From: Escherichia coli phage phiS
Sequence record: PP449093.1
Length of the DNA stretch: 64,000 bases
Strand: one strand, 5' to 3'
A program made the position numbers and the translations under genes. The notes under the pieces were generated by a model. It saw only the letters and a list, made by a program, of their open reading frames with translations, ran no database searches and was not told where the DNA came from. Numbering within the stretch: position 1 is the stretch's first letter; each line of letters opens with the position of its first letter. Positions 3,864-47,405 of the stretch are shown here, in pieces.

Positions 3864-4328
3864 ATGAAATGGGAAGCTGGTAAGACCTATGCGTGGAAAG
3901 ATGTAAAAGATGCAAACCAATTTTTTAAATGGTATGATGTTGATTATTTGAAATATCTGCGATTACCGTTTAAAGTTGCGTCGGTTGATGCGAAAAAAGG
4001 ATACGTGCGGTCTGTTTATCTTCATGATGGAACTTATATGAGTTCAACCGATGTAGGTCTATCTTGTTGGTTTCTGGATCATGACCGTAGCAGATTTGAA
4101 GAAATTATTATTCCAGAAGAATCTAAATTAATTGATCTTCTCAAGTTGGCGATGGATAATTATAAAATCCGCTTTGAATGCAAATCACATGCGGCTATCG
4201 GTGCTAACGCCTTGCGTCATATCTCCAGTTTTGAAGAGTTGAAAGATTTTCTTGACAAAATGCCGGAAAGGGTGCAAGCTATACAGGAAGCAGAGAAAGC
4301 ATTAAACGAACTTGATAAAATCGGTTAA
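3864..4328 (+). CDS. Paralog family member 2
   Basis: Starts MKWEAGKTYAWKD and contains CWFLDHDRSRFEEI. C-terminal helical tail FLDKMPERVQ. Confidence 0.65.
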   Translation: MKWEAGKTYAWKDVKDANQFFKWYDVDYLKYLRLPFKVASVDAKKGYVRSVYLHDGTYMSSTDVGLSCWFLDHDRSRFEEIIIPEESKLIDLLKLAMDNYKIRFECKSHAAIGANALRHISSFEELKDFLDKMPERVQAIQEAEKALNELDKIG

Positions 4329-21888: not shown

Positions 21889-23297
21889 TTAAAACTATCT
21901 TTTCACAGTTGATTTACAATGGCGCATTCTTTACGAATGTATGGCCTCACCTTAAAGCGGACTACTTCACCGAAGACGAAGAAAAACTGATTTATAAGCT
22001 GATTAAAAAGCACGTAGACGAATATTCCAATATTCCTACGCCAACTGCATTACAGATTGCTTTAGACAAGGAGAGAGGCAATCAGAAAACATATGAAGGG
22101 GCTAAAACTCTTCTTGATTCGCTTGAGAATACACCGGAAGACCTTGATTGGTTAATGAAGGAAACCGAAAAATTTATTCGTGACCGTGCCATGTATAATG
22201 CAATGTCACGGGCGCTAGAGATTCAGGCGAACGCACAACTACCAAAAGAGAAACAGAATAAGAAATTGCCGAGTGAGGGAGCTATTCCTGAGATCATGCA
22301 GGAAGCACTATCCATTACGTTTGATTCTGATGTAGGTCATGACTGGTTTAATGACTTTGAAAAACGATTCCTGTTATATCAGACTAAGGCGAATAAGATC
22401 CCATTTAAGCTGCCGATGTTGAATAAAATCACGAAAGGAGGGGCGGAAAGAAAAACGCTAAATGTGTTGCTTGCTGGTGTAAACGTTGGCAAATCGCTTG
22501 GACTGTGTTCTCTTGCTGCGGATTATATGGAATGTGGTTATGATGTATTGTATATCTCAATGGAGATGGCAGAGCATGTAGTAGCAAAACGTATCGACGC
22601 AAACTTGCTTGACATTACATTAGATGAATTGGATAATGGTAATGTTTCTTTTGCGGAATATTCCGCACGCATGAAGCGTGTTAAGAATAAGAAGATCGGA
22701 GATCGTCCGGTTGGAAAATTGATGATCAAGCAGTATCCGACTGGTGGCGCGAACTCCAATCACTTTGAGGCGCTAATGAATGAATTGCGCCTCAAGAAAC
22801 AGTTTAAACCTGATGTTGTGATTGTTGACTATCTGGGGATTTGCGCATCGTCTCGCTTGCGTGTATACTCTGAGAATAGCTATACTCTAGTTAAAGCGAT
22901 TGCGGAAGAACTGCGAGGATTTTTTGTTAAGTGGGATGTTGTTGGTTGGACTGCGGCACAGACTACCCGCGCGGGTTGGGACGCTTCCGACCTTAACATG
23001 AGTGATACCGCTGAATCAGCAGGTCTTCCGGCTACTGCCGACTTTATGTTGGGTGTTATCGAAACCGAAGACCTGGCTAAAATGGGCGTCCAACTCATGA
23101 AGCAGATCAAGTCTCGTTACGGTGATAAGAACTATTATTCACGGTTTAACGTTGGTGTGAAGAAAGGCAATCAGCGTTGGTATGAAGTACCAAACCAGAT
23201 CGCAGATCAGGAGAATGCACAAGTTAAACCACAAAGCGCACAGCAAGCCGAGAAACGAGAAAAACTCGACGAGCTAGCAAATAACATGACTTTCTAA
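21885..23297 (+). CDS. 41: Replicative DNA helicase gp41 (DnaB-like)
   Basis: The N-terminus resembles T4 gp41; Walker A GVNVGKS; RecA-like C-terminal domain. Confidence 0.9.
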   Translation: MIKTIFSQLIYNGAFFTNVWPHLKADYFTEDEEKLIYKLIKKHVDEYSNIPTPTALQIALDKERGNQKTYEGAKTLLDSLENTPEDLDWLMKETEKFIRDRAMYNAMSRALEIQANAQLPKEKQNKKLPSEGAIPEIMQEALSITFDSDVGHDWFNDFEKRFLLYQTKANKIPFKLPMLNKITKGGAERKTLNVLLAGVNVGKSLGLCSLAADYMECGYDVLYISMEMAEHVVAKRIDANLLDITLDELDNGNVSFAEYSARMKRVKNKKIGDRPVGKLMIKQYPTGGANSNHFEALMNELRLKKQFKPDVVIVDYLGICASSRLRVYSENSYTLVKAIAEELRGFFVKWDVVGWTAAQTTRAGWDASDLNMSDTAESAGLPATADFMLGVIETEDLAKMGVQLMKQIKSRYGDKNYYSRFNVGVKKGNQRWYEVPNQIADQENAQVKPQSAQQAEKREKLDELANNMTF

Positions 23298-23983: not shown

Positions 23984-24013
23984 TCTATAATGAAACTCTA
24001 AGGAGACTATATT

Positions 24014-24391
24014 ATGAAAAATATGATTACGCCGGAAGATGTAGCATTCAAAACCGCATTCAACGGAGATATTCTTATTTTTATCGACGGTAAACACGCC
24101 GGAATGATTGAACCGGAAGGTCGCTGGGGTGTTGCTGAACTATATAACGTGGCGGGTGTAGAAGGTCATAAAACAGCACTTGTTTTCTTGTCAGATAAAG
24201 ATCAAATGCGTCGAAAAATTGCTGCGCTCTATAATGAAGCAGTATATTTCTACGAACCGTTTCATCGTATTAAAACGATCTCCCGCGTGACTCGAAAAGA
24301 TGTTAATGCTTGTGTTATCAAGATTGTAGAGAATCAGGATAAACTGACGAAAGACCAGATTGTTGACTTACTGAAAGAGATTATTCTATGA
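24014..24391 (+). CDS. Hypothetical protein (125 aa)
   Basis: RBS AAGGAG. Confidence 0.55.
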   Translation: MKNMITPEDVAFKTAFNGDILIFIDGKHAGMIEPEGRWGVAELYNVAGVEGHKTALVFLSDKDQMRRKIAALYNEAVYFYEPFHRIKTISRVTRKDVNACVIKIVENQDKLTKDQIVDLLKEIIL

Positions 24392-24564
24392 TTGGATTTA
24401 AACAGTTTGTTGAAGAAAATAAACTCAAAGAAGATATGACCGCTGGCGATGCTGGCGGCAATCCTGAGAAGATCGCAGCAGGTGAAACGAGCGGATCTAT
24501 TACCAATCGTGGACCTAGTGTAGCGGGTAAAGAAAAACGCAAAAAGGAGAAAGACGGTGCTTAG
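24388..24564 (+). CDS. Hypothetical small protein (58 aa)
   Basis: My own translation; start overlaps the upstream stop (ATGA). Confidence 0.3.
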   Translation: MIGFKQFVEENKLKEDMTAGDAGGNPEKIAAGETSGSITNRGPSVAGKEKRKKEKDGA

Positions 24565-24715
24565 TATCATCATGTTTATCGTTGGCTTGCTGTCCGCTAT
24601 TATCGGTGTTGTTGTTTTCGGATTATCTGGACACAAAACAAAAACAGAAAAGTTATCCGAGATCACAATGTATGTTGGTGTAGTTCTCATTCTGTTGTCG
24701 GTGGCGCTTAAATGA
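24557..24715 (+). CDS. Small two-helix membrane protein (52 aa)
   Basis: GTG after AAGGAGA. Two hydrophobic segments, IIMFIVGLLSAIIGVVVFGL and MYVGVVLILLSVAL. Confidence 0.35.
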   Translation: MLSIIMFIVGLLSAIIGVVVFGLSGHKTKTEKLSEITMYVGVVLILLSVALK

Positions 24716-24915
24716 TTACGATGAAATGTCTTAAAAGCACATATGCACTTTTTGAAGCCGGAAAAGAATATGAATTTACAGAACTTGATTCGGTAGGCCG
24801 TTTTCGTGTATTCTCTTACACATCGCCAGATGGTAGTGTCTACAAATTTGGCTTAGATGAAAACGGAGAGAATGCAAATGAAAGTGTGGGAACTTTCATG
24901 AAATTTGAGCTATAA
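24712..24915 (+). CDS. Hypothetical protein (67 aa)
   Basis: ORF from the track. Confidence 0.45.
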   Translation: MITMKCLKSTYALFEAGKEYEFTELDSVGRFRVFSYTSPDGSVYKFGLDENGENANESVGTFMKFEL

Positions 24916-24924
24916 GAGGTTATT

Positions 24925-25953
24925 ATGATTTACTACGCAGATTATGAAATAGCGGAAAAAGCCATATATGGCGAACGAAATTTTAAACGGTTGCATACTA
25001 GCTCATTTACGCTGGTCTGTAGTTGTCCGATCTGCGGTGACTCAAAGAAAAATCATACTCAAGCGCGATTCCGTATCTATACCTATAAGGATAGTTTGCG
25101 AGCCGGATGTTTCAACTGTAACTACAATCAGCCGTTAGGTGAATTTCTTAAACAATATAAGCCGGACCTATTCAGGGAATGGCTTATGGAACGACGGAAG
25201 GAACAAGGAGATCACAAGAACACTACGTTCAAGCCACTGAAAAAGGTAGAAAAGCCGGAGATTAAGAAAGTGCAAACATTGCCTTTCTGCGAGAGGTTAG
25301 ATACTCTTCCGGCTAATCATCCTATAATAAAGTATGTCAGTGATCGTTGCATCCCTCACGATAAATGGGATCTTCTGTATTTCACGAGAGAATGGCAAAA
25401 GGTAGCAAATCACATTAAGGCTGATACTTTCAAGAATCCACAACCTGAACCGCGTTTAGTGATTCCTATCTTTAACCGCGAGAACAAGATAGAATCCATT
25501 CAGGGGCGAGCATTGAGAAAGGATTACGGAAAGACCAAATATATGACGATTAAAACTCACGAGTTAGCGAGTAAGGTCTATGGTCTTGAACGCGCCGATC
25601 CGAGTAAACCAGTGTATTTCTTAGAAGGTCCGATCGATTCATTGTTTATTGATAACGGGTGTGCAATTACTGGCGGTACGTTGGGATTAGATGAAATCCC
25701 TTTCCCAGACCAGCGAGTGTTTGTACTTGATGCGGAACCACGGTCTGCCGATACAATGCACCGACTGGAAAAGTTTATCAATGCAGGGGAAAAGATTGTA
25801 TTGTGGGACCGTTGCCCGTGGCATTCTAAAGACGTTAACGCCATGATTCAGGACGAGGGCGCTACACGCGACCAGATCATGGAATACATCAAAGAGAACA
25901 CCGTACAAGGTCTGATGGCTAAAATGCGGTTTATGAAATATTGTAAATTTTAA
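24925..25953 (+). CDS. 61: DNA primase gp61
   Basis: Zn-ribbon CSCPICGDSKKN...CFNCNYN and toprim-like C-terminus; ...EGATRDQIMEYIKENTVQGLMAKMR matches T4 gp61 as I recall it. Confidence 0.9.
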   Translation: MIYYADYEIAEKAIYGERNFKRLHTSSFTLVCSCPICGDSKKNHTQARFRIYTYKDSLRAGCFNCNYNQPLGEFLKQYKPDLFREWLMERRKEQGDHKNTTFKPLKKVEKPEIKKVQTLPFCERLDTLPANHPIIKYVSDRCIPHDKWDLLYFTREWQKVANHIKADTFKNPQPEPRLVIPIFNRENKIESIQGRALRKDYGKTKYMTIKTHELASKVYGLERADPSKPVYFLEGPIDSLFIDNGCAITGGTLGLDEIPFPDQRVFVLDAEPRSADTMHRLEKFINAGEKIVLWDRCPWHSKDVNAMIQDEGATRDQIMEYIKENTVQGLMAKMRFMKYCKF

Positions 25954-25970
25954 TTAATGAGGGTTGTATT

Positions 25971-26534
25971 GTGAGGGTAAGGAAAGCCAAAGAATGGAGA
26001 GATGAATTAAAGGATGAAATACGTCGAAGATATAGACACGAAAGGGGTATATTGATTCATAAAACAAACAGCAAAGCAAGCCGAACGACGAAAGAAGGCC
26101 AGTTTTATAAGGTTGGTGATATAGTAAAGGTATCTAAAGTCACAGCCGGACACCTAAAAGTCTCATTTTCTTTTGAAGGAAAACAATATTTTGAGCTTGT
26201 GCATAGAATAGTATTCTTCTTAGAGCATGGGTATTGCCCACCTGTCATTGACCATATTGACGGGAATCCAGAAAACAACGATCCTCCAAACTTAAGAGAG
26301 GCGACACAAAAACAGAATACCCAAAATATGAGAAGAAATAACCAAACTAAAACTAGCAATTTTAAAGGAGTGCATTATAATAGTCGTTCGGGTAAATGGG
26401 TCGCCCAGATAAGGGACAATGAAGGAAATAAAGTCTATATAGGACAATTTGACCTAGAAATAGACGCCGCAATAGTATATAATGACTATGCGTATAAGTA
26501 TCACGGTGAATTTGCAGTGTTTAATGTTATTTGA
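25971..26534 (+). CDS. HNH homing endonuclease with AP2 domain (copy B)
   Basis: VHRIVFFLEHGY...IDHIDGNPENN...NLREAT, then AP2-like KGVHYN...GKWVAQI...YIGQFDLEIDAAIVYNDYAYKYHGEFA. GTG start. Confidence 0.8.
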   Translation: MRVRKAKEWRDELKDEIRRRYRHERGILIHKTNSKASRTTKEGQFYKVGDIVKVSKVTAGHLKVSFSFEGKQYFELVHRIVFFLEHGYCPPVIDHIDGNPENNDPPNLREATQKQNTQNMRRNNQTKTSNFKGVHYNSRSGKWVAQIRDNEGNKVYIGQFDLEIDAAIVYNDYAYKYHGEFAVFNVI

Positions 26535-26544
26535 GAGGTTTATT

Positions 26545-27063
26545 ATGAGTGAATTTAATTCTTGTGCTGGTCTTGTTAATGATGAAACTATGTCTAAAGC
26601 TGGTATTGCGTATTCCGAGGCAATCACTAGCGGTAAAGATCCGCTGCAAGTAATGTTAGATATGCAAAAAGGATTGCAGGTCGCACTAGCTGATAAATTT
26701 GAGTGGGTAATGCATCCTGATAAGCTGGAAACTTGCGGGGAGATCCTTGACTGGATGAAGTTGTGGGATGACGCAATCGACGACGAGACACGAGAACTTT
26801 ATGTTGCCCTGGGTGGCATGTCAAATGGCAAAGATGCAAGCGCAATTACTAAAGTGTGGAAGAAGAACCACGGCGAAGCACGAGCGCGTAAATTTGCTGA
26901 TCTGTCAGATGACGATAAAACCGAAATTGCGATGGAATTGATCGATATCTGGCATTTTGTGCTGATTAAAATGCTGGGCTTAGGTTTAACCGCTAAGGAT
27001 ATCTTCAAGCTGTACTATCTGAAAAATGCTGAAAACTTCGCCCGTCAAGAACGCGGCTACTAA
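26545..27063 (+). CDS. 56: MazG-like nucleotide pyrophosphohydrolase, probable gp56 dCTPase homolog
   Basis: PLQVMLDMQ...HPDKLET...FKLYYLKNAENFARQERGY fits my recollection of T4 gp56. Position between 61 and dda. Confidence 0.6.
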   Translation: MSEFNSCAGLVNDETMSKAGIAYSEAITSGKDPLQVMLDMQKGLQVALADKFEWVMHPDKLETCGEILDWMKLWDDAIDDETRELYVALGGMSNGKDASAITKVWKKNHGEARARKFADLSDDDKTEIAMELIDIWHFVLIKMLGLGLTAKDIFKLYYLKNAENFARQERGY

Positions 27064-27070
27064 AAATTAG

Positions 27071-27099
27071 TTGACACTACTCTATAATGGTTTTATTAT
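27071..27099 (+). promoter_or_regulatory. Early promoter (TTGACA, 17 nt, TATTAT) followed by a leader hairpin that includes the RBS
   Basis: TTGACA ... TATTAT. Downstream hairpin gcctcc-cgtcgaaagatt-ggaggc plus a T-run sits 8 nt before ATG 27133. Confidence 0.4.
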
Positions 27100-27132
27100 G
27101 CCTCCCGTCGAAAGATTGGAGGCTTTTTTATT

Positions 27133-27636
27133 ATGCAATTTACACCAGAAGAACTTAACATCATTGATCAGGTGATGAACTCTAAAGAAAATATCGATAT
27201 GTCGATCCTTAATGGATTGATTGAAAAGACTGAGCGGTTAGTGCATCATGAAGCCTTGTATCGCGGTGTGAGCAAAAGAGAAGGTCGTAAGCTGGATACC
27301 TTAATTGTAGGCGATTCTTTCGTTGTAGAGCGTCCTATGAGCTTTACGCCACTGCAATCAACAGCAGAGGACTTTGCAACCGATGTTTATGCAACGGGAA
27401 AGATTATTGCAATAAAACCTACCAAGCCTTGCATGAATTATTACGAACATGCTATTGACCGAGTGGTGTCTAAAGAGTATGACAATCCGACTACTCGACT
27501 GTCTTTGTATGCTATGTTGGCAGATGAGCGCGAGTGCATATACAAGACAGGGACGACCATGATCCTTGATGAGATCGAGGAAGTTTACGCGTGTAATGGC
27601 GATCTGATAGAGATTTACAAATTTTCTTTAATTTAA
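27133..27636 (+). CDS. Hypothetical protein (167 aa); possible ModA/ModB-like ADP-ribosyltransferase
   Basis: Ordered YRG ... SFT/QST ... EIEEV motifs resemble the R-S-ExE ART triad. It occupies the T4 modA/modB neighbourhood. The function call is weak. Confidence 0.45.
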   Translation: MQFTPEELNIIDQVMNSKENIDMSILNGLIEKTERLVHHEALYRGVSKREGRKLDTLIVGDSFVVERPMSFTPLQSTAEDFATDVYATGKIIAIKPTKPCMNYYEHAIDRVVSKEYDNPTTRLSLYAMLADERECIYKTGTTMILDEIEEVYACNGDLIEIYKFSLI

Positions 27637-27697
27637 GTGTTGACAGCACAAACCAGATAGACAATAATACACACATACCAACTAAGGAGAATCAATT

Positions 27698-28453
27698 ATG
27701 AAACTGTTTGCTTTTAAATCTAACGAAGAATTGGCGCTGGTTGTTTTCCGGCTGAACTCTATCATGGCTGGTGCTTCACGTCGCAACAAAGACTTCTCTA
27801 TGAGCTTAGTCACTGTGCGTAACATTTACCGACAGACTCATTGCGCCTATTCCGGTGAGGCTTTCGGTGAAGGTGATGATGGACTCTCCTTAGAGCGCAT
27901 TGATTGCAATCTGGGATATGTTGATGGCAATGTAATTCCGGTTAAACTGAAATACAATTCTTTCCGTGGCAATCACACTATCGAATCTCTTAAAGAGATC
28001 CAGGAACTAGGAACTAACGGTAAACTTTCTGATGATGAAATTGCCCTACGTGCGAAGTACATCGAGTGGATCGAACTTAACGAGAATCGCATCAAAAATC
28101 AGGAAATGGCAATCGAAGAAAAGAAATTAGCAATCGAGCGCCACAAAAAGCACAACGAACCGGAGAAAGCAGAGGCAGCCGAGCGAGCGATTAAAAATAC
28201 TCTCTTCCGTATGGAAGAACGTTATCAGAAAATTGCCGATCTCAAGCAAGCCCTTAGCGAAATCAACAAGAAAGAAGAAAAACTTAAGGCTATTGCAAAC
28301 AATACCGAAATCGTGCTAAAATATACCAGCGTTTTGATTGAATCTCTTTCTAAGTATGAGAACTTAACGCCAGCACAAAAAGAACGCGTGAAATACGGGA
28401 TTCCGATTGATGCGTCGTGGATTGAATTGATGAAAGCGAAGGTAGGTTTATAA
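27698..28453 (+). CDS. HNH-motif protein with C-terminal coiled coil (251 aa)
   Basis: CAYSGEAF...LSLERID...GYVDGNVIPV...NSFRGN (HNH-like); the C-terminal half is K/E-rich and helical. Confidence 0.55.
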   Translation: MKLFAFKSNEELALVVFRLNSIMAGASRRNKDFSMSLVTVRNIYRQTHCAYSGEAFGEGDDGLSLERIDCNLGYVDGNVIPVKLKYNSFRGNHTIESLKEIQELGTNGKLSDDEIALRAKYIEWIELNENRIKNQEMAIEEKKLAIERHKKHNEPEKAEAAERAIKNTLFRMEERYQKIADLKQALSEINKKEEKLKAIANNTEIVLKYTSVLIESLSKYENLTPAQKERVKYGIPIDASWIELMKAKVGL

Positions 28454-28767
28454 TGCATGTATTTGCTGTATGTTATCGTGATAAAGACGGATTCTTTCAA
28501 TACTCAGTGGACGCGAAAGGTCGAGTCCTAACTTGCGAAACACATGATGCTGCGTTAGCGTCAATGTGTGATCAGATAGATTATTGTGAGAGTCTATTGG
28601 CAGGTGAACCGAAATACAAGGTTGTACCTAAACGAAAATTTGGCATAATCCGGTCTTCTGAAATTGTTCGGGATGGTATCGAATATAAAATTCCTGAATA
28701 TGAAAAAGAACGGGTACGGCGAGAACTCAATACTATCTGTGTTCGCAAGGTGAGGATTTTAGGATAA
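28453..28767 (+). CDS. Hypothetical protein (104 aa)
   Basis: ORF from the track; start overlaps the upstream stop. Confidence 0.5.
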   Translation: MHVFAVCYRDKDGFFQYSVDAKGRVLTCETHDAALASMCDQIDYCESLLAGEPKYKVVPKRKFGIIRSSEIVRDGIEYKIPEYEKERVRRELNTICVRKVRILG

Positions 28768-30158
28768 TGAGCAGAGTATTAACTTTCGATATGTTAACAG
28801 ACGGGCAAAAACATGCTTTTGATGTTCTAATGAAACGCATTGAACAAAAGAAGCATACAACTGTCCGGGGTGCGGCGGGTACTGGTAAAACCGCAATGAT
28901 GAAATTCATTGTTCAGGAAATGGTCCGCCGTGGTGTAACTGGTGTGGTTTTGGCAACGCCTACCCACCAGGCTAAAAAAGTTTTGAGTAAAGCGGTAGGT
29001 CGTCAAGCATTTACTTTACATGCTTTATTGCGTCTTAATCCGACCAACTATGAAGATACTCAAGTATTTGAACAAAAAGATACTCCTAAGCTAGATGATG
29101 TTCAGATCATCATTGTTGATGAAGCGAGTATGGTCGATAAGAAGTTATTTGATATTCTCATGAAGAGTATCAACGGTCGAATTGTTGTTATTGCAGTTGG
29201 CGATCCTCACCAGTTACGACCAGTTGATCCGAGCGGTGCAACGTCAATTTCTCCTTTCTTCACGGATGAAAATTTTCAAAACGTGGAGTTGACAGAAATT
29301 AAACGATCTAATGCACCGATCATTGATGTGGCGACCGCTGTCCGTAACGGTAAATGGGTATTCGAAAAGCAGTGCGGTAACGAGGGTGTATTCCATAGCT
29401 CAACTCTGCCGGAGTTTATGAAGCATTATTTCGAAACCGTTAAAACGCCGGAAGACCTTCTAGAAAACCGTATTCTGGCTTACACTAACAAGAGCGTCGA
29501 AAAACTCAATGAAATTGTGCGTAAGCGCGTTTATAACACCGATGAACCCGTGATTGTAGATGAAATTCTTGTTACTCAGGAACCGTTGATCGAATATCTG
29601 CGAGATGAACGCGGGAAGAAAATTCCCAATGTTATTTTTAACAATGGTGAGATGATCCGGGTTAAAGAGGTTATACCGCGTGAATTTACATTACGTTGCA
29701 CGGGGGTAGATCCGCAACCAGTTTTAGGCTATACTCTGAAAGTGGAAAGCGTCGATGATGACGAAGACAAAGAAATCCTAAATCAGAAAGTCGGTTTAGA
29801 TGCAGTCGGAATCACTACAGATAAACCGGATTTGGTAGAAATCAACATTCTGACAGAACAACGTCAGAAGAACATTTTCTCTATCTATCTGAATACGGTC
29901 GCCGGACAATATCGCGAAATGAAGAAAGAGAATCCAAAATTTAAACCAGATTGGGATTCCTTCTGGACGATGAAGCGTATGTTCTTGAATGTAAAAGCAT
30001 TACCAGCTTGCACCATTCATAAGTCACAAGGGATCAGCGTAGACCGCGTGTTCCTGTATACTCCTTGTATGTGTACAGACAATGTTGACTTTGAATTGGC
30101 AATGCAGTTATTATATGTGGGTGTTACCCGTGCGAGGTATCGAGTAGACTATATTTGA
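28767..30158 (+). CDS. dda: DNA helicase Dda (SF1)
   Basis: GAAGTGKT, VDEASMV, TEIKRSNAPIIDVATAVRNGKW and LYVGVTRARY match T4 Dda as I recall it. Confidence 0.9.
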   Translation: MSRVLTFDMLTDGQKHAFDVLMKRIEQKKHTTVRGAAGTGKTAMMKFIVQEMVRRGVTGVVLATPTHQAKKVLSKAVGRQAFTLHALLRLNPTNYEDTQVFEQKDTPKLDDVQIIIVDEASMVDKKLFDILMKSINGRIVVIAVGDPHQLRPVDPSGATSISPFFTDENFQNVELTEIKRSNAPIIDVATAVRNGKWVFEKQCGNEGVFHSSTLPEFMKHYFETVKTPEDLLENRILAYTNKSVEKLNEIVRKRVYNTDEPVIVDEILVTQEPLIEYLRDERGKKIPNVIFNNGEMIRVKEVIPREFTLRCTGVDPQPVLGYTLKVESVDDDEDKEILNQKVGLDAVGITTDKPDLVEINILTEQRQKNIFSIYLNTVAGQYREMKKENPKFKPDWDSFWTMKRMFLNVKALPACTIHKSQGISVDRVFLYTPCMCTDNVDFELAMQLLYVGVTRARYRVDYI

Positions 30159-30168
30159 GGAAATTATT

Positions 30169-30336
30169 ATGATTATGCGAAGTATCCCAGAATTTAATGA
30201 TGTGACGGTAAGCCGTCACAATGGAACTGTTACCATGTGCTTTAGATGGGGTCTATACGGCTGGAACGTGTCCGGCGATAGTGAAGCTGCATGTATCAAT
30301 AAAATGATCGAGCATTTCACTAAGCGAGGTTTTTGA
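30169..30336 (+). CDS. Hypothetical small protein (55 aa)
   Basis: My own translation; ATG after GAGGAA. Confidence 0.35.
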   Translation: MIMRSIPEFNDVTVSRHNGTVTMCFRWGLYGWNVSGDSEAACINKMIEHFTKRGF

Positions 30337-30337
30337 T

Positions 30338-30580
30338 ATGGTTGTTATTAATGATATGGCTAATGTAATACATCTACAATCAATTGTCGCGTGGAACCGT
30401 CAAAAGATTCATTGTGACTATGCACAACATGTAATGAATTTTAACAACAAAGTACGCGCATACATGGCAACGGACCGACTGTTAACCGATAATTACGGTA
30501 ACGGGATTATTGATTGTAGCGGTTTCATTCTGGATAAAAACGATCTGGATTTGTTCCGGCATATCGCGGAGGATATTTAA
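30338..30580 (+). CDS. Hypothetical protein (80 aa)
   Basis: ORF from the track. Confidence 0.5.
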   Translation: MVVINDMANVIHLQSIVAWNRQKIHCDYAQHVMNFNNKVRAYMATDRLLTDNYGNGIIDCSGFILDKNDLDLFRHIAEDI

Positions 30581-30581
30581 A

Positions 30582-31250
30582 ATGCTTCCAGTGGATTTAA
30601 TGATTGACTTTGAAAGTTTAGGTTATCCGCCTGATGGGGCGGTGATCAATATGGCGGCAATCGGATTTAAAGAAGATCCGCACAATCCACCTACATTTAA
30701 AGAACTGGTTGACAATTCCTTTCTGGTAAAATTTGATATTCCTTCCCAGAAAGGTGTAAGGGTGTTTGATCATGGTGTGGTTGAATGGTGGAAGAATACC
30801 GCCTCAGAAGGCATGAGAAAGCAATTAATCACAAATGGTACGGAAGTATCAACTAAAGAAGGTTTAGCGCGTTTTAACGCATTCTGTGAAGCCGTAGGAG
30901 TAGATCCGGTTAAATCCGTAATGTGGTCACGCGGTAATGCGTTTGATATTCCGTTACTAGTTGATATGATCCGCCGTGCACACAATACACGAGATACGTT
31001 CAGCCTTGAACCTGTGCGATTCTGGAATATCCGAGATGTTCGCACCGCCATTGAGCGTACATTGATGCATCGCGGGATGTGTGAGTGTCCGTTACCAATG
31101 GGTACGCTAGATGGTTTTATCGCACATGATGCGATTCATGATTGCGCTCGCGATATTCTTATGCTAATCTATGCACAACGTTATGCTATGGGTCTGGAAG
31201 ACCTACCAGAAAATCCAGATCCAAATTCAGTTAAGAAACAAAGGGGATAA
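30582..31250 (+). CDS. dexA: Exonuclease A DexA (DnaQ-like 3'-5' exonuclease)
   Basis: DFE..G, WWKN, FWNIRDVRT and CPLPMGTLDGFIAHDAIHDCARDILM match T4 DexA as I recall it. Start moved to ATG 30582. Confidence 0.85.
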   Translation: MLPVDLMIDFESLGYPPDGAVINMAAIGFKEDPHNPPTFKELVDNSFLVKFDIPSQKGVRVFDHGVVEWWKNTASEGMRKQLITNGTEVSTKEGLARFNAFCEAVGVDPVKSVMWSRGNAFDIPLLVDMIRRAHNTRDTFSLEPVRFWNIRDVRTAIERTLMHRGMCECPLPMGTLDGFIAHDAIHDCARDILMLIYAQRYAMGLEDLPENPDPNSVKKQRG

Positions 31251-31251
31251 T

Positions 31252-31425
31252 ATGCCATTATACGATTATTCTTGTGAAGAACACGGTCAATTTCAGAAAA
31301 TCCGCAAAATTTCCGAGCGTGAAAAGGCAGAATGCCCTGAATGCGGTAAAGAATGCAAACAGGGATTGACTGCCCCGCGCGGGATTAATGGCGGGTACTA
31401 TGATAAAAATGTGCGCGTGTCATGA
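31252..31425 (+). CDS. Zinc-ribbon protein (57 aa)
   Basis: CEEHG ... CPECGKEC, two CxxC pairs (FmdB-like). Confidence 0.5.
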   Translation: MPLYDYSCEEHGQFQKIRKISEREKAECPECGKECKQGLTAPRGINGGYYDKNVRVS

Positions 31426-31531
31426 GTCATATACTTGACAATCACTCAATTTTTAATATGATTGTTGCAGCCGTCTTTGTGGCGGTTGCAGTAAGTTATG
31501 GTTATGTTATGAGCAAAATTAAGGTTTAGCT

Positions 31532-46622: not shown

Positions 46623-47405
46623 CTAAACAGCCGGTCCGTAAATGGCTCCGCGATTTTGCCACGTTGGGGCAGACCCTATAACAGCATAACCGGCATCGCC
46701 GCCATTGTATTCATATCCTTGACCACGAATATTACATCTACCTCCTGCGGCGCCTACCTCACCACCGCTTCCGCCATTATAGACATCGTTCATGGACCCC
46801 GAACCAGGCGCATAAAGAGTACCAGCAGTTGCGCCTGATTGCATGTTGGCAGATCCACCAGCAGCACCAAACGGACGACCGCCGCCACCACCAAAAGTTA
46901 ATTTCATTGGTTTCGTAGGAGAATAATACCCACCACCTCCACCGCCACCGCCGCCAGCGATAGCACCGCCATTATTAATTCTTAGCCTCCCACCAATATC
47001 ATTTTGAATACAATGACCCCCAGCTGATCCAGGACTATTGCTACCGCCATTCCCTCCACGACCATACATCGTTACGCCATGTATATTCAACTGAACATAT
47101 TCATTCGGTGTATCTCCATACATAAAGAATAAAGGAACATCTTTAGAATATGATACTAAATCTCCAGTGATATTAAACACTATAGGTGTACTACCTGCCT
47201 CAAAGCATCTATCACGGAACCACTGACCATTGAAGTTATGGTCTGCTCCAAGTGTATGAATAATTTCTCGCGAGCGACCTGCAAATTGACTCATCCAGCA
47301 AGGAACACCCAATCTTAATTGACCAGCCGCTTGACTCATCCATCGTTGTCCTGTTTCATTTACGGATGAACTACCAATCCAACCAGGAACACCAACTACT
47401 GCCAT
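46623..47405 (-). CDS. 38: Receptor-recognising adhesin gp38 (T2-type, glycine-rich motifs)
   Basis: Poly-Gly segments [12 protein letters not shown] and [15 protein letters not shown] typical of T2-like gp38; follows gene 37. Confidence 0.8.

Follow-up and report, generated by a model that had tools for sequence, protein, structure and literature searches.

Why should a small gene of a T4-like phage keep its ribosome-binding site (RBS) in a hairpin that begins at the very edge of its own promoter? This question is raised by positions 27071-27636 of a 64,000-nucleotide (nt) stretch of Escherichia coli phage phiS (accession PP449093.1; the whole stretch is termed the window herein). They hold a 62-bp upstream cassette (27071-27132) and an open reading frame (ORF), mod (27133-27636; ATG at 27133, stop codon ending at 27636), that encodes a 167-amino-acid (aa) protein of the Mod family of ADP-ribosyltransferases (ARTs). 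An earlier reading made from the letters alone (the sequence-only reading) had suggested that the hairpin either represses translation or terminates transcripts reading through from the upstream gene 56. Our analysis favors the view that the cassette is probably a compact promoter, terminator, and translational gate of the promoter-early stem-loop (PeSL) type, with mod translated only from the RNA of its own promoter. Features of the window lie on the + strand unless another strand is given.

The cassette opens with a −35 box, TTGACA (27071-27076), followed after a 17-nt spacer by a −10 box, TATTAT (27094-27099). Together they form an early σ70-type promoter that matches the consensus at 11 of 12 positions and is the joint-best match of the promoter scan within 24000-31500. 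An AT-rich, UP-like stretch, tactaaaaattag, precedes it (27058-27070) and contains the stop codon of gene 56; the intergenic space between gene 56 and mod is 69 bp. Folding yielded a stem-loop at 27100-27123, GCCTCC-c-GTC-GAAA-GAT-t-GGAGGC, with the structure ((((((.(((....))).)))))) and an energy of −15 kcal/mol for the centroid or −13.8 kcal/mol when folded alone. The stem begins 0 nt past the −10 box; its 5′ arm (27100-27105 and 27107-27109) and 3′ arm (27114-27116 and 27118-27123) enclose a GAAA loop (27110-27113). The Shine-Dalgarno (SD) sequence GGAGG (27118-27122) lies wholly within the 3′ arm, 10 nt ahead of the ATG, and the T-run TTTTTTATT (27124-27132) provides both the U-tract and the spacer between SD and AUG. 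The sequence-only reading had thus correctly seen the SD as the 3′ arm of a strong hairpin with a T-run, and had placed the hairpin just upstream of the ATG, where it is; the distance from the end of the stem is 9 nt and not 8. Six basal G-C and A-U pairs, the GAAA loop, and a U6 tract abutting the stem give the structure the anatomy of an intrinsic terminator. A first terminator scan overlooked it because of its internal mismatch. In the GenBank record of phage Ec_Makalu_001, the same hairpin already has a terminator annotation, which overlaps the RBS.

A TATAAT nearer to the −35 box (27084-27089) was considered as the true −10 box and rejected: it lies 7 nt past the −35 box and lacks a −35 partner for itself, and neither phage JSE nor the related locus L007 conserves it. 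An Rfam-type search recovered no known RNA family; its sole match, to DUF2800 (27094-27190, − strand; E = 0.13), scored 23.5 bits, below the threshold of 60.2 bits, and was taken as chance. Lying between the −10 box and the expected transcription start, the 5′ arm GCCTCC (27100-27105) would at the same time be a GC-rich discriminator. GC-rich discriminators of E. coli promoters are linked to short-lived open complexes and to stringent (ppGpp/DksA) sensitivity.

Transcription by σ70 usually starts 6 to 9 nt after the −10 box. By this spacing rule, mod transcripts should begin at about 27105-27108, with G27107 as the nearest purine, and the arm at 27100-27105 would therefore be promoter DNA and lie outside mod's own transcript. 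In RNAs that contain the full hairpin, the probability of the SD being unpaired was 0.00, in contexts extending to −60 and to −150 alike. RNAs starting at 27105-27108 gave 0.39 to 0.47, and their minimum free energies were only −2.6 to −4.5 kcal/mol. Starts farther upstream left the SD closed: the value was 0.00 when the RNA began at 27100 and 0.09 when it began at 27102.

According to the model that we favor, the cassette would have three jobs. As a promoter, TTGACA-N17-TATTAT would drive immediate-early transcription of mod. As a terminator, the GC-rich hairpin and its U-run would halt RNA arriving from gene 56. As a gate, it would make use of the position of its two arms, with GCCUCC between the −10 box and the start site and GGAGG as the SD, such that both arms occur together only in RNA from upstream. 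Read-through RNA from gene 56 would be either terminated or left untranslatable, its SD locked in the helix. RNA from mod's own promoter would begin inside the hairpin, lack the 5′ arm, and be translated from a free SD. Mod synthesis would in this way be tied to the firing of its own early promoter. In E. coli, synthesis of T4 ModA is highly toxic and overexpressed ModB is lethal (PMC2988021, PMC3014915), which offers a plausible reason for tying translation to one promoter.

The hairpin stands out from chance, as a local feature. A 57-nt segment around it folds better than all of 500 dinucleotide shuffles (z = −3.05), and a 111-nt segment covering the whole intergenic region with its AT-rich flanks does not fold significantly (z = −0.74); the fold signal is local, and the flanks dilute it in the longer segment. 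We also folded, over −80 to +40, each of the 76 gene starts of the window that have an SD of at least 4 nt. The mod SD had an unpaired probability of 0.000, compared with a median of 0.52, and values below 0.01 occurred at 3 of the 76 starts. Among the 19 terminator-like hairpins on the + strand of the window, that of mod is alone in combining adjacency to a −10 box, an SD in the 3′ arm, and a start codon within about 10 nt.

Other strongly paired SDs in the same folds belong to the gene starts at 22776 (+ strand, 173 aa; 0.000), 47405 (− strand, 260 aa; 0.013), and 30582 (+ strand, dexA; 0.037). The start at 47405 is preceded by a GC hairpin and a TATAAAT-like late-promoter motif.

The window belongs to a Krischvirus, an RB49-like T4-type coliphage; its segment 26400-28800 shares 99.2% identity with Escherichia phage vB_EcoM_G2494 and 93% with RB49. 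The hairpin is identical in all sequenced Krischviruses examined and hence uninformative there, so we turn to six diverged loci of the RB49 type. Their Mod proteins are 74% (L006 and L010), 63% (L007), 49% (L012), 43% (L014), and 40% (L013) identical to that of the window. Gene 56 lies upstream in L006, L010, and L012 and probably also in L007, where the coding tail aligns with the end of gene 56; L014 has a Mom-like gene in this place, and L013 has a DNA methyltransferase gene. In all six, a −35/−10 pair is kept at a spacing of 16 to 17 nt despite changed spacer sequence, and a GC-rich hairpin followed by a T-run lies 0 to 2 nt past the −10 box. The −35 box TTGACA is invariant in JSE, L006, L007, L010, L012, and L013, and the relatives' −10 boxes read TATGAT, TATAAT, or TATACT.

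Six Krischvirus-type sequences (Mod 43 to 100% identical) keep the stem, the T-run, and the 0-nt offset from the −10 box, whether the upstream gene is gene 56, a homing-endonuclease gene, or the Mom-like gene. In the alignment of these six, 93% of the cells are paired, and sliding the partner columns abolishes the pairing. At the fourth pair of the stem, the window has U-A, L007 and L012 have C-G, and L014 has A-U (U-A in three sequences, C-G in two, and A-U in one), and the SD reads GGAGG, GGGGG, or GGUGG, each with a matching change in the 5′ arm. The covariation score was 0.307 as against 0.163 in shuffles, and 3 of 500 shuffles reached it. As far as aligned sequences can tell, this covariation supports selection on the helix. 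A metagenome scan found 99%-identical loci only, and an exact-pattern scan of viral contigs found two loci; the covariation is therefore limited to six sequences.

The element also belongs to a known kind. A PeSL is an intergenic cassette with a consensus σ70 early promoter, an AT-rich upstream region, and a stable stem-loop, followed by an SD and ATG (PMC2839356). About 50 PeSLs were found in each of RB49 and phi1 (Arbiol et al. 2010, PMC2839356), and such cassettes occur in other T4-like phages (PMC2839356; Comeau et al. 2014, PMC4122927). Positions 27071-27132 agree with this sequence definition and belong to the subclass whose stem-loop lies downstream of the −10 box; the element upstream of mod is a PeSL whose promoter activity and termination are predicted. 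PeSL stem-loops have been proposed to terminate or attenuate transcription from upstream, and one of them cut lacZ expression as much as rrnB T1 (PMC2839356). The suggestion that the mod hairpin stops read-through from gene 56 is thus in line with the published role of its class.

PeSL-mediated recombination and mini-circles have likewise been documented (PMC2839356). In phage JSE, a homing-endonuclease gene differing from that of the window is inserted between gene 56 and modB on the opposite strand (L002, 524-1444, − strand), and similarity to the window restarts exactly where the mod cassette has its −35 box, TTGACA (junction at about 1500). This junction and the varied upstream genes of L013 and L014 are consistent with PeSLs acting as junctions for module exchange. 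The window contains many more PeSL-type cassettes, of the other positional subclasses. Their stem-loop lies between the two boxes or covers the −10 box (2608, 10627, 17444, 33916, 34285, and 42512), or it comes right after the −10 box (20173 and 31435). None of these other PeSLs seen in the window has its SD inside the stem.

How widely might the arrangement at the SD be shared? T4 itself has a comparable structure. Folding placed a helix with 19 pairs and an energy of −22.3 kcal/mol (z = −4.6; none of 200 shuffles did as well) in the T4 modB leader, at about 4120-4175 (− strand) of L011 (NC_000866, 9000-16500), formed by the arms GAUGAUAUGAUAGCUUCUG and CGGAGGCUAUCAUGAUUAUU. Its 5′ arm consists of the −10 box TATGAT and the discriminator, and its 3′ arm consists of GGAGG and the AUG. 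The positions of this promoter and RBS agree with the depositors' annotation of X98695.

We also folded the leaders of eight more T4-like phages, in each case that of the first mod gene (loci L016, L015, L025, L024, L026, L018, L019, and L027). The same pairing, of the SD and/or the AUG with the gene's own −10 box and discriminator, was made by different sequences in Salmonella STP4-a, Erwinia COW86c, Citrobacter Ursula, Serratia X20, Klebsiella phi1_146055, JS98 (modB), and Enterobacter Q7622, and, in weak form, in Klebsiella K65. The z scores ranged from about −1.2 to −7.6. They were below −3 in T4, STP4-a, COW86c (−7.6), Ursula (−6.3), X20 (−3.2), and phi1_146055 (−7.0) and weaker in JS98, Q7622, and K65. 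RNAalifold gave a weak consensus for the T4-type leaders, although each folds strongly alone, because the MAFFT alignment was out of structural register. A U-run is absent from all nine T4-type leaders with a helix, so these helices cannot be terminators. At 11 of 14 loci, the unpaired probability of the SD was 0.00 to 0.01 in long RNA compared with 0.23 to 0.74 in RNA begun 7 to 8 nt past the −10 box. These values refer to the SD core; a metric over −14 to +3 is uninformative for the window because its SD lies at −15 to −11.

In COW86c (L015) and Ursula (L025), the annotated mod start (530 and 474, respectively) is an ATG inside the −10 box TATGAT. A GGAGG and an ATG (563 and ~507) lie 33 nt downstream in frame and likely mark the true start, and the annotation is probably wrong.

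These leaders led us to a broader proposal, which we hold tentatively, at a little below even confidence. ModB-type genes across T4-like phages may share promoter-gated translation, with the −10 box and discriminator of each gene serving as the anti-SD or anti-AUG strand in RNA from upstream; in the RB49 lineage the helix would also be a terminator, giving a three-in-one element of about 60 nt. ADP-ribosylation of the α subunit of RNA polymerase by the phage contributes to changed use of early promoters, so that such gating would confine synthesis of a toxic enzyme to a brief pulse after infection, ending once those promoters shut off. In the literature searched, we did not find promoter-gated translation of modB, and an earlier mention of the T4 modB helix is possible.

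Several points weigh against gating of mod translation. The covariation comes from six sequences of about four lineages and essentially one strongly covarying pair, and the shuffle controls for it are not probabilities. L013 has the hairpin and T-run 2 nt past its −10 box and a separate SD, GGGAG, downstream and outside the helix. As judged by these comparisons, it is the overlap of promoter and terminator that appears most conserved in the RB49 lineage, and SD occlusion appears frequent but not universal; occlusion could simply follow from how very short the intergenic region is. A helix of this kind is absent from T4 modA (whose translation is coupled to that of modB), JS98 modA, and phiC120 mod. 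The start site is placed by a rule of thumb, and the literature that we searched gives transcript ends, 5′ or 3′, neither for T4 modB nor for any Krischvirus. Even in the short RNA, the accessibility of the SD is only about 0.4. An efficient terminator, finally, would leave little read-through RNA, and occlusion in vivo would then add little.

The most serious competitor, which we consider unlikely, is that the hairpin is an intrinsic terminator only, insulating mod from gene 56, and that its overlap with the SD is accidental and without translational effect. The canonical GC stem, GAAA loop, and U6, the terminator annotation in Ec_Makalu_001, the lacZ assay in which a PeSL stem-loop matched rrnB T1 (PMC2839356), and the retention of hairpin and T-run in L013 with the SD outside would all be expected of a mere insulator. 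It would leave unexplained why T4-type mod genes of several genera have occluding helices of unrelated sequence that lack a U-run, which points to selection on occlusion itself. Nor would it account for the central base of the SD (A, G, or U) changing along with its partner in the stem, or for mod being the only one of the window's 19 terminator-like hairpins with its SD in the 3′ arm together with −10 adjacency and a nearby start codon.

The translational repression proposed by the sequence-only reading, if applied to mod's own mRNA, is a different matter. The hairpin would then be part of that mRNA and would repress its translation, at all times or until melted by some factor or by temperature; or it would attenuate the gene's own transcription. 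The stem does lie downstream of the −10 box, and all of it would be in the message if transcription started no later than 27100. The usual start 6 to 9 nt past the −10 box, though, falls after the six GC-rich basal pairs, so that own-promoter RNA should lack the 5′ arm, and the upstream TATAAT, as a possible source of an earlier start, is not conserved. Although the sequence itself turns over, the stem stays 0 nt from the −10 box in the six Krischvirus-type sequences and 2 nt from it in L013, which fits a 5′ arm kept untranscribed, and a hairpin with a U-run at +1 to +33 would be self-defeating, terminating the gene's own transcript. We regard this reading as highly improbable; any repression is likely to be limited to read-through RNA. 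Equally little weight can be given to the idea that the palindrome mainly has another role, as a recombination hot spot in DNA, in RNA processing or stability (RNase III, protection of the gene 56 3′ end, or GGAG as a RegB site), or as a promoter-tuning discriminator. The restart of JSE homology exactly at the −35 box below a different insertion, the cassette shared by L013 and L014 under different upstream genes, and the documented PeSL recombination and mini-circles (PMC2839356) speak for recombination here. Yet recombination requires sequence identity and not base pairing and so predicts no compensatory changes, and the JSE breakpoint is at the −35 box and not in the stem. No evidence of processing sites emerged in this analysis, and all of these functions are compatible with the gate that we favor and are not alternatives to it.

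What, then, is the protein whose synthesis would be gated? The ORF encodes the sole Mod-family ART of this RB49-like phage and is nearer to T4 ModB than to ModA. Its product is 99.4% identical to the ModB ADP-ribosylase of RB49, phi1, ECD7, and others, a name that the JSE protein also carries. It matched the PHROG profile phrog_832 (RNA polymerase ADP-ribosylase; E = 5.8e-21), and BLASTP aligned it with T4 ModB (E = 2e-11, 34% identity) and T4 ModA (E = 1e-6, 23% identity), with identities referring to the aligned part. The family PF26816 (Mod_ADP_RT) is precomputed on a 98%-identical protein cluster, P0001; our own Pfam scan of the ORF gave a sub-threshold DUF5507 match only, and PF26816 apparently lies outside the Pfam copy scanned. 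Word-indexed protein searches and an exhaustive HMMER search returned only 3, 9, and 10 relatives, and the Mod family is small. Membership in it is secure, and NAD-dependent catalysis is predicted.

The catalytic triad of the window's Mod consists of R44, S70-F-T72, and E132-R-E134. R44, in a Y/W-R-G motif within predicted strand 42-45, corresponds to R72 of ModA and R73 of ModB. S70-F-T72, in predicted strand 69-72, aligns with S99-F-T of ModB and S96-A-S of ModA. E132-R-E134, where the ARTT loop ends and just ahead of predicted strand 135-137, aligns with E163-Q-E165 of ModA and E171-Q-E173 of ModB. The invariant columns of a 13-sequence alignment of ModA, ModB, and metagenomic relatives include R44-G45, S70, E132, and E134; across this and a 15-sequence alignment, R44-G45 is invariant and E132-R-E134 invariant or nearly so. 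ModB R73 is experimentally needed for ADP-ribosylation and RNAylation, and the ModB active site is of the R-S-EXE type (PMC10468400). The sequence-only reading had rightly picked out YRG (R44) and the S-F-T motif (S70-T72) but had taken E147-I-E149 for the ExE motif; this sequence is not conserved and lies within a predicted β-strand (142-152).

The same reading had proposed fold prediction and comparison with ModA and ModB as a check, and both bear it out. No PDB chain matched by sequence at E ≤ 10, and folds were therefore compared instead. An AlphaFold2 model built from a 15-sequence input reached a pLDDT of 93.3 and a pTM of 0.86. The best 50 Foldseek matches in the PDB were all R-S-E ARTs (Certhrax, C3, CDTa, iota Ia, VIP2, HopU1, and ExoT), with E values of about 1e-5 or better and query-normalized TM scores of 0.5 to 0.63. 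The best matches among viral models (BFVD) were ModA and ModB of T4-like phages (TM scores of 0.8 to 0.93). Profile, BLASTP, alignment, and fold thus agree on an ART of the R-S-E type, as had been claimed.

With T4 ModA and ModB, the window's Mod shares the R, S-x-T, and E-x-E residues, the fold, the genome position, and an early σ70-type promoter. It differs in length (167 aa, compared with 207 aa for ModB and 200 aa for ModA), lacking about 30 N-terminal residues and the insertion before ExE, and the window phage has one mod gene where T4 has a modB-modA pair. With the C3-like and binary-toxin ARTs (Certhrax, C3bot, CDTa, iota Ia, VIP2, HopU1, and ExoT), it shares the ART fold. In contrast to these, it is smaller, is only 9 to 17% identical, and would be a phage host-takeover enzyme and not a secreted toxin. 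ModA-like enzymes target the α subunit of RNA polymerase, and ModB-like enzymes target S1, EF-Tu, and trigger factor and carry out RNAylation; the window's Mod may have either set of targets.

The neighborhood fits this assignment. The order in the window is gene 56, mod, srd, dda.1, and dda, and that in T4 is gene 56 ... modB, modA, srd, dda.1, and dda, as expected from the suggestion that mod lies where T4 has modA and modB. Upstream, the gene 61 primase (24925-25953) is followed by a free-standing HNH-AP2 homing-endonuclease gene (25971-26534) and by gene 56 (26545-27063), a dCTPase/NTP pyrophosphohydrolase gene (phrog_173, E = 1.8e-32; Pfam dUTPase_2/PRA-PH) that in relatives is 519 bp long and annotated as dCTP pyrophosphatase. 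The endonuclease gene, between genes 61 and 56, is present only in some Krischviruses, and megablast matches of the RB49 type begin at query position 152, just 3′ of it. Downstream, the promoter scan found the next early-type promoter, TTGACA-17-AATAAT (27640-27668), ahead of srd and without a hairpin, so that mod is flanked by two promoters, its own and that of srd. There follow srd (27698-28453; phrog_1400, E = 2.3e-73), dda.1/Y01A (28453-28767), and the dda helicase gene (28767-30158). Unlike in the window and T4, dda.1/Y01A directly follows mod, with no srd, in L012 (3031-3407), L013 (2986-3303), and L014 (1316-1689).

The gene itself is nothing new: it is annotated as an RB49-type Mod ADP-ribosyltransferase, and modB of RB49 has been so named in GenBank annotation for years. 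Its regulatory element is a very compact case, in which one sequence appears to serve as promoter discriminator, terminator stem, and anti-SD strand. The comparative result is the one most worth following: T4 modB and mod genes of eight other T4-like phages, mostly of different genera, pair the start region with the gene's own −10 box, which suggests a deliberate restriction of toxic Mod's expression to RNA begun at its own immediate-early promoter. ModB is of renewed interest as an RNAylation enzyme, and such cassettes could serve as parts for insulated, promoter-specific expression.

Compared with PeSLs as described, the mod cassette has the same promoter, AT-rich upstream region, GC-rich stem-loop, SD, and ATG, and its upstream neighbors vary between relatives, as expected of a shuffling linker. 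It differs in three ways. Its 24-nt stem, beginning 0 nt past the −10 box, necessarily spans the start site. The SD itself forms the 3′ arm of this stem, and the words "translation" and "ribosome" occur 0 times in PMC2839356. Moreover, it precedes a conserved gene of known function and not an ORFan.

The closest precedents for the gate are T4 e, soc, 49, and I-TevI and Aeh1 mobE, in which the SD and/or the AUG is sequestered on long early or middle transcripts and RNA from a nested promoter lacks the 5′ arm (PMC3014915). The mod cassette has the same logic, with the start region paired in read-through RNA and the 5′ arm absent from the predicted RNA of the nested promoter; modB is not among the sequestered start regions listed in that 2010 review. 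In contrast to T4 e, soc, 49, and I-TevI, whose nested promoters are late (gp55) promoters, mod has an early σ70 promoter and no TATAAATA late (gp55) promoter in its element, which is therefore not the same temporal switch from early-off to late-on. Its 5′ arm is the discriminator of its own promoter (in T4-type mod genes, the −10 box itself), and in the RB49 lineage the helix has, in addition, the form of an intrinsic terminator. The mod cassettes would thus extend the principle known from T4 e, soc, 49, and I-TevI from late to early promoters.

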